Part shown: in pieces, positions 14,562 through 32,513 of the stretch | Layout: each line of letters starts with the position of its first letter | Numbering within the stretch: the stretch's first letter is position 1 | From: Escherichia coli | GTDB taxonomy: Bacteria; Pseudomonadota; Gammaproteobacteria; Enterobacterales; Enterobacteriaceae | Reading direction: 5' to 3' (one strand) | NCBI RefSeq assembly: GCF_003334305.1 | Contig: NZ_QOWS01000005.1 | Length of the DNA stretch: 64,000 nt | The notes under the pieces: generated by a model | What the model was told of the DNA's origin: nothing | Database searches by the model: none | The model's input: only the letters and a program-made list of their open reading frames with translations | Program-made: the position numbers and the translations under genes

Positions 14562-14605
14562 TCCATTTCACTCCAGACCCTAACTTCAGCTCCTGCAAAA
14601 TCGCA

Positions 14606-14621
14606 AGGTAAACGTTTGCCT
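14606..14621 (-). promoter_or_regulatory. PurR operator (PUR box) in purR 5' leader
   Basis: Minus-strand AGGCAAACGTTTACCT, near-palindrome with the AAACGTTT core of the PUR box; about 45 nt upstream of the purR start codon. Confidence 0.6.
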
Positions 14622-14859
14622 TTACACACCTTACGCACAACAAAAGTGTTGCGGTACGCCGGAAAAACGACACGGAGCGTCAGGAAGGGGTCAATGGCCA
14701 GTACGCAAATAGTGTAAGCGTGGAATTTTGGCCGATCTTGACGAAAAGGGGAAGTGGTAAAAACACTTATCATTATAAATGACGGGAGATTTTTTCATCA
14801 CAGTGTGTAAAAATGCGTAATATCACTTTTTGTGTGGTAATAAAAAAGGAGAAAACTTG

Positions 14860-14949
14860 ATGAGCACCGACCTTAAATTTTCACTGGTAACAACGATTAT
14901 CGTCCTCGGTTTGATCGTAGCCGTGGGTTTGACTGCCGCGCTGCACTGA
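14860..14949 (+). CDS. ynhF: Small membrane protein YnhF (29 aa)
   Basis: Not in ORF track (below length cutoff); ATG at 14860 after GGAG, encodes MSTDLKFSLVTTIIVLGLIVAVGLTAALH, single TM helix; matches remembered ynhF. Confidence 0.7.
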   Translation: MSTDLKFSLVTTIIVLGLIVAVGLTAALH

Positions 14950-15114
14950 TTTCCTCTCGAGGGAGCGCGTTCTCCCTCGCATCTCCTTCCTGTTTGTTAG
15001 CAAAATGGCAAAAGTGTTTTCTCTTTTTGTTATTTTCATTTTTTTGTGATTGCTGTCATGCTTTCGCCACTTTAATGAATATCGCGTAATGACGCGAAGA
15101 GGTGGAGATAAGGC

Positions 15115-27733: not shown

Positions 27734-28255
27734 ATGAAACGTTTTAGTCTGGCTATTCTGGCGCTGGTTGTTGCAACCGGCGCACAAGCTGCCAGTGAAA
27801 AAGTCGAGATGAACCTCGTCACGTCGCAAGGGGTAGGGCAGTCAATTGGTAGCGTCACCATTACTGAAACCGATAAAGGTCTGGAGTTTTCGCCCGATCT
27901 GAAAGCATTACCCCCCGGTGAACATGGCTTCCATATTCATGCCAAAGGAAGCTGCCAGCCAGCCACCAAAGATGGCAAAGCCAGCGCCGCGGAATCCGCA
28001 GGCGGGCATCTTGATCCACAAAATACCGGTAAACATGAAGGGCCAGAAGGTGCCGGGCATTTAGGCGATCTGCCTGCACTGGTCGTCAATAATGACGGCA
28101 AAGCTACCGATGCCGTCATCGCGCCTCGTCTGAAATCACTGGATGAAATCAAAGACAAAGCGCTGATGGTCCACGTTGGCGGCGATAATATGTCCGATCA
28201 ACCTAAACCGCTGGGCGGTGGCGGTGAACGCTATGCCTGTGGTGTAATTAAGTAA
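27734..28255 (+). CDS. sodC: Periplasmic superoxide dismutase [Cu-Zn]
   Basis: ORF-track 27683..28255; start at ATG 27734 after GGAGG (173 aa, signal peptide MKRFSLAILALVVATGAQA); Cu/Zn ligand context GFHIHAKGSC. Confidence 0.95.
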   Translation: MKRFSLAILALVVATGAQAASEKVEMNLVTSQGVGQSIGSVTITETDKGLEFSPDLKALPPGEHGFHIHAKGSCQPATKDGKASAAESAGGHLDPQNTGKHEGPEGAGHLGDLPALVVNNDGKATDAVIAPRLKSLDEIKDKALMVHVGGDNMSDQPKPLGGGGERYACGVIK

Positions 28256-30268
28256 TTAAGAGGCCAGCGTACCTTGCGGTGGTGCTTGCTCAAGTTGCGA
28301 AAGCGAGCAGTACAGCCGCCAGACAATTGCCGCCAGCTCACGGGCGGCAGGTTGATGATGACGGGCAAGGCTGTCGCAAATCCGCTGTAATTCTTCAAGT
28401 GTGGCCGCCAGTGATTTTTGCTGAACGCCACGCTCACTCATCACTCCCCGCAACAGTGAAATACAGTTATCCCGTACTCGCGATAACGGATCGGAACGCG
28501 ATTCCCAGTCGCGCAATTGCCAGACAACATGAGAACAGTTCAGCAGCACTACACCCCAGCGTAATAACCAACGGCGAGCCAGCGCATCCTGGCTGTTACT
28601 CAACTGACTGACGTGATGATAAGTGAGCGATTCAAATTCGCTTTCACTCAGTGTTGGATGGCGGCTTAGCTGATCGACAAAATCCCGGCGCAGCGCGCGA
28701 ATATGGCGGCGGCTTTTACGAGCATCCGATCCTGGACGCAGAATGGCGAACGCTAGCCAAGCCAGCGCAACGCCAACGATTTTTGCCAGATTATCGTTAA
28801 GAAAATCAGCAAAATCATACACCGGGGGATTAGTGACAGCGATAAACGAACCCATAAAAACAATCAGTTGCCCCCACAGTGCGGCAAATTTGGGCATCTG
28901 CAATTTAAGAAGCTGCATTGTCGCCAGCAGTGGAAAGAGAAACAGTAAAAATTGCCACAGATCGCTAATCTGGACCATCAGGCCAAATTTGACCACAAAG
29001 CTGAATAGCGAAAGTAACACCAGCGTGCGCATCAGCAGTGACAACGACTTAAACGGTGCTGCGACGGCGGAGTAGAGTACGCAGCTAATTGCTGCCAGCG
29101 TTAATGCATTGGCACCGGCATCCCATTGCGATGCAATACTCCATGCGCCAATCATCATCAACGTACAAAATGTACGCAGCCCGCTCCACATAGCTTCGGC
29201 GTTGTCGGTATGACGAGCCAGAGCAGATGTCCGTGCGAGTCTGGCATGATCATCTACACCGCTTTGCAGACGATGTAATTCCTGACTACTTTGCAGATAA
29301 AGGCGGCAAAAATAACGTAGTCGCTGCCAGAAGGCGACGTGCCGGTAGTCGGCGACGTTGGTCGGGCGTAGCGGGGCGATAATACGTGCGACGGTGTAAG
29401 CATCTGTTTGCGAACTGGCGAGCGCCGTCAGCAATTGTTCGAGAATTTCTCGCGTGGCACCTGGCGGTGAGGGCCAGTTGAGCAACATACGTCGCAGGCT
29501 GGAGATGACACTGGTCATACGTAATTGCTGGTGGAGTAGCGCATTAAGCCGCGCGTTTTGCTGGCGAAAACGATAGTGGCTCCAGAAAGCCTAGATACGC
29601 AGCAAATTCATGGTCAGTATCTGCCCAATCACCCCCTCATGTGCTGCACGAATGGCATCGTTTGTTTCAGGCTGCCAGAGTAAACTGGCATGTTCCAGTA
29701 ATCGGGCGTGCATGTTTTTCAATGCGGTTAAAAGGGCTGTAGCATCGGAACTGCTAGGCAGGATCATCATCATCATGCCGCCGCACAAAATACCGACTAT
29801 CACCTCGCAAACGCGCGCCTGAGCGATATCCCACAGCTGGCTGGCCTCAGTAATATTAACCATCGGAAAGGCGATGATGGCAGCCGTGTAGCCCGCCAGT
29901 TGAAATGCATACGCGACGTTATTCGTGAAGTGCGCACAGGCCCAGGTACAAAAGCCAAGCCACGCCGACATGCTCAATAGAAAAAACCACGGCTCATTGA
30001 GCGTATGCCCGGCAAGAAGCAGTGCCGCAATGGCTCCCAGTAAACTGCCAGCGATGCGTCCGAGGCTTTTGCTGATGACACCGCCAACGGTGGGAAAGCT
30101 AACCACTGCAGCCGAGGTCATCGCCCAATAGGGTTCATCCAGATTCAAATAATAGGCAACCGTCAGCGCCAGACACATGGCAATGGTATTGCGTAACGCA
30201 TAACGCCATTGCGCCAGCGTGGCCTTGAACCAGGGCAAATTGCGCAAGGACCATGACGATGCGTTCAT
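28256..30268 (-). pseudogene. ydhK: FUSC/AaeB-like inner-membrane efflux component YdhK, interrupted by in-frame TAG at 29591-29593
   Basis: Two ORF-track ORFs (29591..30268, 225 aa; 28256..29518, 420 aa) lie in the same frame and are separated by a single TAG followed by 24 sense codons; 225+1+24+420 = 670 codons, the length I remember for intact YdhK. Confidence 0.75.
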
Positions 30269-31125
30269 TATTGACCTACGGCAATGCTACAGGTGGTGCC
30301 CGACACCAGCGTGACATCGCCTGGAACTTTATCCAGCGCAAAGCGGACGGGAACGCGTTGGGCGAGACGAACCCAGGGGACGTTAGGTTTCACATCCGGA
30401 ATAAGGCTTGAGTCACTTTCAACGCTTTGATCATAAATCGCCCGACCGATACTGGAAACGTGACCCCGTAACGTTTTGTTATCACTATAGAGGGTAATTT
30501 GTGCTGGTGCACCTTCGCGGATATGGCGCAACTTGGTTTCTTCGAAATAACCAATGACGTAAAACGAGTGGCTGTCGACAAGGGCAAACAGCGGTTTCCC
30601 GGTGTCAGCGTAATCGCCGATGCGGGTAGTGAGGTTAGTCACCCAACCACTCACCGGGGCGCGAATTTCCGTTTGCGCCAGTTGCCATTGTGTCTGTTTC
30701 AGCGTGGCCTGTGCGGCATTAACACTGGCCTGCATCGCTTTAACATTGAGGTTAGCGGTATCGAGTTCTTCGGCAGAAATAAAATTTTGTGAGAGATGAC
30801 GACGACGATTCGCTTCGTTATTGGCTTTTGCGAGGTCAGATTGCGCTTTCGCCAGCTGAGCCTGTGCGTTCAGCTCGGCGATCTGAAAGGGCGTTTTATC
30901 GATCGTGAGCAGAAGATCCCCCGCGTTAACCAGTTGGTTGTCTTTTATATTCAGCTCAACAATACGTCCCGACACCTGTGGGGTGATAGAAACCTTTTCT
31001 GCGCGTATTTTCCCGTCGCGTGTCCACGGAGATTGCATGTAATAATTCCACAGCCACCATCCGGCAAGAACCGCAACTATCGCTACAATGATTGTTGAGA
31101 AATACTTAATTGTTTTAATTGACAT
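30268..31125 (-). CDS. ydhJ: HlyD-family membrane fusion protein YdhJ (AaeA-like)
   Basis: ORF-track 30268..31167; start placed at ATG 31125 (285 aa), 2 nt after ydhI stop; stop TAA overlaps ydhK ATG by 1 nt (TAATG). Confidence 0.85.
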
Positions 31126-31127
31126 AG

Positions 31128-31364
31128 TTACCACGCAATCAGTATTGCCAGAGCAAGGCAAACGCAAATCGCAAACAGCGATAAATCCATTAACAAGGGA
31201 TGCCAGATGTCACCGGCGTAGATCCAGCCACGAAGCAGGCGGTGTACGACAAGCCAGATGACGAATCCAAACGCGAAGGCTTTGAAAAACGGAGGAAAAT
31301 AGACGGACGCACCGAACACCAGATCTTGTAAGGGCAATCCTGTTGCATTGAGCATAAACTTCAC
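31128..31364 (-). CDS. ydhI: Small membrane protein YdhI (DUF1656, AaeX-like)
   Basis: ORF-track 78 aa, two predicted TM helices; first gene of ydhIJK. Confidence 0.8.
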
Positions 31365-31558
31365 AAAGTAGATTCCTTTACGACCGAATATATTGCGTTA
31401 GATTAATAAATATTCTTTAAGTGCGAAAAATTTACGCGCAATTTCTGAAAAATATGTCTGACGGTAACCAAATGCAGCAATACATTTGTTTTAGCAATAC
31501 AATTGCTGCACACTATTCTAAAAGCCGCATAATATCTTAGCAAGCTAATTATAAGGAG

Positions 31559-31999
31559 ATGAAATTGGAATCGCCACTAGGTTCTGATCTGGCACGGTTG
31601 GTGCGCATATGGCGTGCTCTGATAGACCATCGCCTGAAACCGCTGGAGTTAACACAAACCCATTGGGTTACGTTACACAATATCCATCAGTTACCTCCAG
31701 ACCAGTCGCAAATTCAACTGGCAAAAGCGATTGGCATCGAGCAGCCATCACTGGTCCGTACTCTGGACCAACTGGAAGAAAAAGGGTTAATTTCGCGTCA
31801 AACTTGTGCCAGCGATCGTCGGGCTAAACGTATTAAACTGACGGAAAAGGCAGAGCCACTGATCAGCGAAATGGAAGCTGTTATTAACAAAACCCGCGCG
31901 GAAATATTACATGGCATCTCCGCAGAGGAACTGGAGCAACTGATTACGCTCATCGCAAAACTTGAGCATAATATCATTGAGTTACAGGCCAAAGGGTGA
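31559..31999 (+). CDS. slyA: MarR-family transcriptional regulator SlyA
   Basis: ORF-track 146 aa ([21 protein letters not shown]...); annotated start may lie 2 codons downstream; divergent from ydhIJK. Confidence 0.95.
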
Positions 32000-32045
32000 A
32001 ATGAAGGGGGCGTGTGGTCAGTAACCTGACCACACGCAAACTTAT

Positions 32046-32513
32046 TTAGCGCGGAGAAACGGTCACCTGACTGCCATTGCTGGCCAGTACGACACGTTGG
32101 CCCGGAGAGAAACGAGTGTTGCCTTGTTTCTGTACCACCATGATGGTATTACCATCGTCTTTACGAATTTCCAGCTCGACACCCTGCGTTTTGTTCATTG
32201 CACTCTGTACGCCCTGACCAGCTACGCCACCTGCAACAGCGCCTGCTGCAGTAGCCAGAGAACGCCCGGTTCCGCCACCAACAGTATTCCCCAGGAAACC
32301 ACCAAGAACAGCACCGCCAATTGCACCGATAACGTTGGAATCATCACCGCCCTGAATCTGTACCGGACGTACGTTAACGATGGTGCCATAGCTGACATTC
32401 TGTACTTGTTTCGCTTCAGAAGCGGTATAAACATCCCCTGACAGGGTGTCGTTATTAACACAACCGACAAGAGACAGACCTACCATTGAAACAACCAATA
32501 CGCGTTTAATCAT
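32046..32513 (-). CDS. slyB: Outer-membrane lipoprotein SlyB
   Basis: ORF-track 155 aa; lipobox LVGC; Gly-rich segment. Confidence 0.95.
   Translation of the reverse strand: MIKRVLVVSMVGLSLVGCVNNDTLSGDVYTASEAKQVQNVSYGTIVNVRPVQIQGGDDSNVIGAIGGAVLGGFLGNTVGGGTGRSLATAAGAVAGGVAGQGVQSAMNKTQGVELEIRKDDGNTIMVVQKQGNTRFSPGQRVVLASNGSQVTVSPR

Follow-up and report, generated by a model that had tools for sequence, protein, structure and literature searches.

The slyA–ydhIJK locus of Escherichia coli A7: a MarR-family regulator divergent from an AaeXAB-like efflux operon with a nonsense codon in the pump gene ydhK

A 64,000-nucleotide (64-kb) stretch of Escherichia coli DNA, here called the window, was analysed around the regulatory gene slyA and its divergent neighbours ydhI, ydhJ and ydhK. 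The DNA is identified with high confidence as the slyA–ydhIJK locus of the E. coli chromosome, in which ydhI, ydhJ and ydhK make up one operon and in which ydhK is broken in the strain A7. The segment 28200-32050 together with 1.5 kb on either side is 100% identical to E. coli A7 (NZ_CP028767.1, isolated from orangutan faeces) and shows two base differences from strain 55989, and the region is present in every one of the 5,426 complete E. coli genomes at 95–100% nucleotide identity and with unchanged gene order. A first-pass annotation of the window had described slyA as divergent from ydhIJK across an AT-rich region, and coordinates, strands and base composition (32% GC in the intergenic region compared to 50.8% in the whole window) all agree with this. 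The genes and their common control region are:

28256-30268, minus strand: ydhK pseudogene, FUSC-family inner-membrane pump subunit, 670 codons with a stop at codon 226, RefSeq 'internal stop'
30268-31125, minus strand: ydhJ, periplasmic membrane-fusion (HlyD/EmrA-type) adaptor, 285 aa
31128-31364, minus strand: ydhI, small DUF1656 membrane protein, 78 aa, GTG start
31365-31564, no strand: control region shared by the divergent ydhI and slyA, 200 bp, 32% GC
31565-31999, plus strand: slyA, MarR-family regulator, 144 aa, TTG start, Shine-Dalgarno sequence AAGGAG at 31553-31558 (RefSeq coordinates)

The lesion in ydhK changes Gln226 from CAG to TAG (29591-29593, minus strand; codon 226 of 670) and is due to an A on the plus strand at position 29593 where other strains carry a G, codon 226 being CAG in strain 55989. 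When complete E. coli genomes were searched, a 45-mer with the mutant base in the middle was found in one of the 5,426, A7 alone, and the corresponding wild-type 45-mer in 5,407. As the TAG allele is private to A7 the lesion is taken to be recent. A nonsense codon in the pump gene had been noticed earlier, and its existence is supported by RefSeq, where ydhK is a pseudogene with an 'internal stop', but it lies ~675 bp outside the coordinates that had been assigned to the feature. The stop takes away residues 226–670, among them the second hydrophobic cluster (~388–512), and since two-thirds of YdhK and the second membrane bundle are thereby removed the A7 pump is, as judged from its sequence, almost certainly dead. 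The genes slyA, ydhI and ydhJ are all intact in the window and, as ydhK stands at the end of the operon, the stop should not have polar effects on other genes.

For comparisons between species, at least 120 loci from different Enterobacterales species were collected by searching for the SlyA motif THWVTLHNI written as a degenerate codon pattern, a sample which is non-random as the exact codon pattern was required. Among the matches listed, 42 of the 43 other species in which ydhK is fully covered have an intact gene. This near-constant integrity could also be taken to mean that the stop arose in assembling the A7 sequence and that the living strain has an intact pump, as could the singleton status of the TAG (one of 5,426 genomes) and the fact that the nearest relatives differ from A7 by that single base across the 3.85-kb region. 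The change is however a base substitution and no homopolymer indel, substitutions being an uncommon type of error in finished assemblies; in addition RefSeq retained ydhK as a pseudogene, and in natural isolates accessory transport genes often carry nonsense alleles private to one strain. An assembly error is thus regarded as rather improbable.

It is extremely unlikely that a working pump is instead restored from two pieces, the 225-aa N-terminal fragment and a fragment reinitiated at Met251 (open reading frame 28256-29518, 420 aa). The 420-aa frame does follow the ydhK stop in frame, and the hydrophobic clusters of YdhK are separate with a hydrophilic stretch after each. However, Met251, the next in-frame ATG, is situated 72 nt beyond the stop and has no Shine-Dalgarno sequence before it, the break falls within the first hydrophilic domain and not between the halves so that 25 residues would go, the two halves show no detectable mutual sequence similarity (best E = 0.065) and no naturally split YdhK was found among the 43 species. 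The missing Shine-Dalgarno sequence, the position of the break within a domain and the lack of natural split forms among the 43 species led us to reject a functional split pump, leaving a truncated and almost certainly inactive YdhK as the preferred reading.

The assignment of YdhI, YdhJ and YdhK as a small membrane protein, a membrane-fusion protein (MFP) and a FUSC-family protein was put to homology searches, in which Pfam and NCBIfam agreed with it and nothing spoke against it. For YdhK the intact allele of strain 55989, one base off the ydhK of the window, was used as a stand-in in the profile search and matched Pfam FUSC (PF04632) over model positions 1–658 of 660 (E = 3.7e-140), with a FUSC_2 match at residues 33–163, while in the window itself the FUSC frame is interrupted by the TAG at codon 226. 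A Kyte-Doolittle scan, which is a crude tool, placed the hydrophobic clusters at ~20–170 and ~388–512, each followed by a hydrophilic stretch in a pattern resembling AaeB. The idea of an internal duplication ('two homologous halves') got no support at the sequence level, a BLAST comparison of the N-terminal half with the C-terminal half giving no significant similarity and the best E value being the 0.065 given above. YdhJ reached 132 bits against the NCBIfam model RND_mfp (TIGR01730), above its cut-off of 94.9 bits, contains the Pfam domains HlyD_D23, Biotin_lipoyl_2 and HlyD_3 (HlyD barrel-sandwich, lipoyl-like) and has a single N-terminal hydrophobic anchor at residues 8–26. YdhI matched Pfam DUF1656 (PF07869, E = 1.8e-14), has two hydrophobic segments, and its gene immediately precedes those of the MFP and the FUSC protein, as expected of a DUF1656 member. 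In transposon fitness data from other bacteria, mutants in DUF1656 genes share phenotypes with mutants in the MFP and FUSC genes of the same operon (10.1101/072470). When intact, the DUF1656 protein YdhI, the adaptor YdhJ and the FUSC pump YdhK would form a three-part efflux assembly of the inner membrane and periplasm.

Read on the minus strand, the junction between ydhI and ydhJ is ...TGG TAA CT ATG TCA, with 2 nt between stop and start, and the junction between ydhJ and ydhK is ...GGT CAA TAATG AAC, in which one A is common to the stop and the start, so that the TAA-CT-ATG and TAATG packing described in the first-pass annotation is exact. The form of the junctions varies among species and their tightness is constant. 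Among the matches listed, all 87 loci have a gap of -4 to +10 nt from ydhI to ydhJ, and 67 of 68 have one of -4 to +9 nt from ydhJ to ydhK, with an overlap of 1 nt or 4 nt in 36, although the latter gap is biased low by taking the ydhK start nearest to the ydhJ stop; the lone exception is a Kluyvera genome in which ydhJ is broken. In the window, ydhJ is without a good Shine-Dalgarno sequence of its own (GGTAACTATG) and the ydhK start is preceded by a weak AGG ~9–11 nt upstream. Taken together the gap pattern fits what would be expected if selection kept translation coupled, or co-ordinated at the least, where ribosomes finishing ydhI or ydhJ most likely reinitiate on the next gene and so would hold the subunits in step.

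The same junctions could reflect nothing but a compact operon in which each gene has a ribosome-binding site of its own and no functional coupling takes place, an explanation that we consider possible though clearly the weaker one. In its favour, the exact junction is not conserved but takes many forms between -4 and +10 nt, ydhK has its weak AGG, and the paralogous aaeXAB genes are separated by gaps of 5–7 nt without overlap. Yet, among the matches listed, no gap is longer than 10 nt in the 87 and 67 independent loci, 36 of 68 ydhJ/ydhK junctions show an ATGA or TAATG kind of overlap, and ydhJ has no recognisable Shine-Dalgarno sequence. Stop-start distances that short generally permit termination-reinitiation, and coupled translation of ydhIJK remains the reading that we favour.

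The regulator itself passes the SlyA equivalog cut-off of NCBIfam (NF002926, 278.7 bits against a cut-off of 120 bits), in agreement with its earlier assignment to the MarR family. Its translation begins at TTG 31565 and not at the ATG at 31559, which is in frame two codons upstream of the UUG start and had been chosen by open-reading-frame callers and by the first-pass annotation. This is concluded from four lines of evidence: RefSeq annotates the start at TTG 31565; residues 1–143 of the TTG-initiated protein align to positions 1–143 of the 144 of the SlyA model; the Shine-Dalgarno sequence AAGGAG (31553-31558) is 6 nt from the TTG but has zero spacing to the ATG; and a UUG start of slyA has been documented experimentally and limits SlyA synthesis (PMC3173223). 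The whole arrangement, ATGAAATTG (31553-31567), is kept in most sampled Enterobacteriaceae. With slyA starting at the TTG, the intergenic region, rightly called AT-rich but earlier estimated at ~190 bp (194 bp when counted from the ATG), has a length of 200 bp (31365-31564).

A search for SlyA-type palindromes in this region, as the first-pass annotation had suggested, revealed one exact and two 9/12 sites, of which the first two below are those listed for E. coli K-12 (PMC5797941):

31537-31548, plus strand: SlyA operator TTAGCAAGCTAA, exact consensus, ending 16 nt before the slyA TTG
31398-31409, plus strand: SlyA-type site TTAGATTAATAA, fitting TTAN6TAA, with 9/12 consensus matches on the minus strand, 34–45 nt upstream of the ydhI start
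31491-31502, plus strand: putative SlyA-like site TTAGCAATACAA, 9/12 consensus matches

In K-12 the first is listed as the PslyA site and the second as lying '161 bp upstream of slyA', and the same 200-bp fragment bound SlyA in an electrophoretic mobility-shift assay (Curran et al. 2017, PMC5797941). The exact sequence TTAGCAAGCTAA occurs once in the window, and of the 39 sites in the window with at most three mismatches three fall in the 200-bp region where ~0.12 would be expected, a ratio that is somewhat inflated by AT-richness. The third site is enclosed by a perfect 9-nt inverted repeat, TGCAGCAAT/ATTGCTGCA (31473-31481 and 31502-31510), with 20 nt between its arms; a smaller palindrome, AGCAAT-ACA-ATTGCT, is enclosed by the same repeat. 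No published function for the repeat and no binding data for TTAGCAATACAA were found in the literature.

Just upstream of TTAGCAAGCTAA a -10-like hexamer CATAAT (31528-31533; TATAAT in most genera) was identified, which would place the operator at about the slyA transcription start. On the minus strand TTAGCAAGCTAA contains TTGCTA, a candidate -35 box, and 17 nt away from it is TAGAAT (31520-31515), a candidate -10 box pointing at ydhI, located inside a conserved block ~145 nt upstream of that gene. SlyA binds TTAGC-NN-GCTAA-type palindromes in the shared 200-bp AT-rich region, and TTAGCAAGCTAA, the strongest of the sites, would lie at or just past the likely slyA transcription start, a position suiting autoregulation, and may cover the ydhI-directed -35 box as well. 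CATAAT was also tried as the -10 box of a slyA promoter, but only a poor -35 box (TTGCTG, at 19-nt spacing) accompanies it, and the slyA promoter was left unassigned.

Experiments on the regulation come mainly from Salmonella. In vitro, with RNA polymerase and SlyA only, ydhI was repressed ~19-fold and slyA ~5-fold and salicylate relieved both; ydhIJK mutants were delayed in fusaric acid and slyA mutants grew better in it (PMC6401476). In vivo, ydhIJK belongs to the SlyA-repressed regulon as core genes defined by RNA-seq in Salmonella, and fusaric-acid tolerance is the known phenotype of YdhIJK (PMC12506092). By extension to E. coli from these in vitro data, aromatic carboxylates such as salicylate would release SlyA from DNA and thereby derepress the pump.

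Several points weigh against the picture of a translationally coupled efflux operon under SlyA repression and with a broken ydhK. The TAG at codon 226 rests on one assembly, and the cluster encodes no outer-membrane partner. The site TTAGATTAATAA is poorly conserved beyond close relatives, in a part where the alignment, being AT-rich and length-variable, is unreliable. A promoter scan of 31100-32100 gave one promoter-like match, the ydhI-directed TTGCTA/TAGAAT pair, compared to 1.6 in shuffled sequence, which is not distinctive, and no plus-strand slyA promoter passed in that scan; the promoter geometry around TTAGCAAGCTAA is a suggested one, and the coupling of ydhIJK is deduced from spacing, strengthened by the conservation of that spacing across species. 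The remaining point concerns the direction of control: in K-12, overproduction of SlyA raised ydhIJK transcripts 2.2-fold, which the authors read as activation (PMC5797941) and which is opposite in sign to the repression seen in Salmonella.

The K-12 result would be explained if in E. coli SlyA were an activator of ydhIJK that drives H-NS off the AT-rich DNA between the divergent genes, and not a classical MarR-type repressor, a mechanism that we regard as unlikely while giving it appreciable weight. An intergenic region of 32% GC is typical of H-NS targets, and E. coli slyA is reportedly positively autoregulated, to go by the title alone of a 2007 study by Corbett et al. Moreover, the fragment bound by SlyA in K-12 is the intergenic one (PMC5797941). 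The Salmonella experiments point the other way, as the 19-fold repression of ydhI was obtained with nothing present but RNA polymerase and SlyA, and the genetics fit repression, the ΔslyA strain growing better in fusaric acid (PMC6401476), as does the presence of ydhIJK among the SlyA-repressed core genes (PMC12506092). In addition, the placing of TTAGCAAGCTAA at the likely slyA +1 and the possible ydhI -35 corresponds to repressor positions, and SlyA overproduced from a plasmid may act indirectly. Repression by SlyA is therefore kept as the preferred reading, although the sign of SlyA control in E. coli may differ from that in Salmonella or depend on H-NS.

All loci listed in the comparison between species encode a SlyA orthologue (72–97% identity). 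When the 106 listed loci in which 700 nt or more of sequence precedes slyA were inspected, 86 had divergent ydhI-ydhJ(-ydhK), one had ydhI alone and 19 had none of the genes, the last group including, among the matches listed, Pectobacterium, Dickeya, Brenneria, Providencia, Moellerella and some Erwinia, Mixta and Pantoea. The divergent linkage was also found in Serratia, Rahnella, Rouxiella, several non-pestis Yersinia, many Pantoea, Erwinia persicina and Winslowiella iniecta (for example loci L006, L013, L022, L037, L048, L063, L064, L079 and L113). The linkage of slyA and ydhIJK has been said not to be significant outside 'cluster I' (PMC6401476); with 86 of 106 listed species, in a sample that is non-random, it seems broader than that statement. 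Repeated loss of ydhIJK with slyA kept was described by Will et al. 2019 (PMC6401476) and the 19 unlinked loci agree with it.

The operator is more persistent than the pump genes. Among the matches listed, 63 of 117 species have the TTAGCAAGCTAA box without any mismatch and 100 of them with no more than one, always 15–17 nt before the start codon, and in 15 of the 19 species without ydhIJK beside slyA it is kept with at most two mismatches. An alignment of 91 species showed the stretch 31537-31567 to be the most conserved and 31484-31530 to be moderately so, with TTAGCAATACAA at the edge of this moderately conserved block and the TGCAGCAAT/ATTGCTGCA repeat partly overlapping it; the ydhI ribosome-binding site is conserved as well. 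The stretch 31385-31475, which holds TTAGATTAATAA, is variable and matches the hypervariable ~100-bp segment described by Will et al. (PMC6401476). Independent pump lesions beside an intact slyA and operator were also seen in Kluyvera genomosp. 3 YDC799 (L088), where ydhJ is interrupted after ~179 codons, in Kosakonia oryziphila (L080), where ydhJ and most of ydhK are deleted and YdhK residues 605–670 are left, and in a Leclercia adecarboxylata metagenome-assembled genome (L117) with an in-frame ydhK stop near codon 236; some of these three could be assembly errors.

The locus is bordered by two further genes:

ends at 28255, plus strand: sodC
32046-32513, minus strand: slyB, convergent with slyA

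Past slyB follow anmK, mliC, pdxH, tyrS and pdxY. The stop codons of sodC (plus strand) and ydhK (minus strand) abut as TAA/TTA at 28253-28258 with zero intergenic bases, so that any terminator of either transcript must lie inside the opposite gene. In the 46-nt gap between slyA and slyB a hairpin was identified (32010-32037) with a 12-bp stem containing eight G-C pairs, and in sequence it looks like a terminator ending the slyA transcription unit; having T/A-rich runs on both flanks it has the appearance of a bidirectional one. An Rfam scan of the whole window gave no RNA family at or near the slyA–ydhIJK locus. Elsewhere in the window, and unrelated to the locus, it matched the enterobacterial small RNA STnc550 over its full length (14562-14952, plus strand, 396 bits) and, at 5816-5970 (minus strand) and 5689-5851 (plus strand), two neighbouring tRNA genes together with an 'HPnc0260 antisense' match that partly overlaps one of them on the opposite strand.

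SlyA binding, repression, relief by salicylate and fusaric-acid resistance are already published for slyA–ydhIJK, which has been characterised by structure, biochemistry and genetics, and what is new here is the private ydhK pseudogene allele only, a minor strain-level fact. The locus is a textbook case of a MarR-type regulator beside its ancestral efflux target and has little import beyond correct annotation. The A7 allele adds one case to the published pattern of ydhIJK loss with retention of slyA, and as a natural ydhK-null strain A7 may be of use in testing export by YdhIJK and the feedback of pump loss on SlyA activity. The cross-species tables (operator offset, tight junctions, linkage in Serratia, Rahnella, Yersinia and Pantoea) may be mildly useful for work on SlyA and RovA. 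A more speculative combination of the above, and one that we consider doubtful, is that the single operator at 31537-31548 serves both promoters so that one SlyA dimer sets the expression of regulator and pump alike, with the A7 allele as a natural experiment. If true, SlyA in A7 would sense a ligand that is no longer exported, so that inducer could build up inside the cell and the whole counter-silencing regulon of SlyA could shift.

Compared with known systems, the best named relative of YdhIJK is AaeXAB of E. coli, encoded elsewhere on the chromosome in the same order (DUF1656, HlyD-type adaptor, FUSC) and with a divergent regulator, AaeR, which is a LysR-type activator, unlike the MarR-type SlyA. 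AaeXAB exports p-hydroxybenzoate and aromatic carboxylates. The top NCBIfam matches of YdhI, YdhJ and YdhK are AaeX, AaeA and AaeB, yet the equivalog cut-offs are missed (21.4 against 82 bits for AaeX, 242 against 400 for AaeA and 119 against 870 for AaeB), pairwise identities are 33% for YdhI/AaeX, 41% for YdhJ/AaeA and 24% for YdhK/AaeB, and the junctions of aaeXAB are gaps of 7 nt and 5 nt without overlap where those of ydhIJK are a 2-nt gap and a 1-nt overlap. With scores that far under the cut-offs the earlier wording 'AaeXAB-like' is the correct one and, on these alignments, YdhIJK is a paralogue of AaeXAB, orthology being excluded. In its regulation the locus resembles marRAB and emrRAB, in that a MarR-family winged-helix dimer binds a palindrome at its own promoter and is released by aromatic carboxylates (Salmonella data), but it differs from such classical pairs in that SlyA is mainly known as a pleiotropic H-NS counter-silencer and in that the operator outlasts the loss of ydhIJK. 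The slyA–ydhIJK of E. coli K-12 and Salmonella Typhimurium is the same locus, both K-12 sites, TTAGCAAGCTAA and TTAGATTAATAA, being present in the window, and the difference from it is the one base that turns ydhK codon 226 into TAG and truncates the pump subunit.

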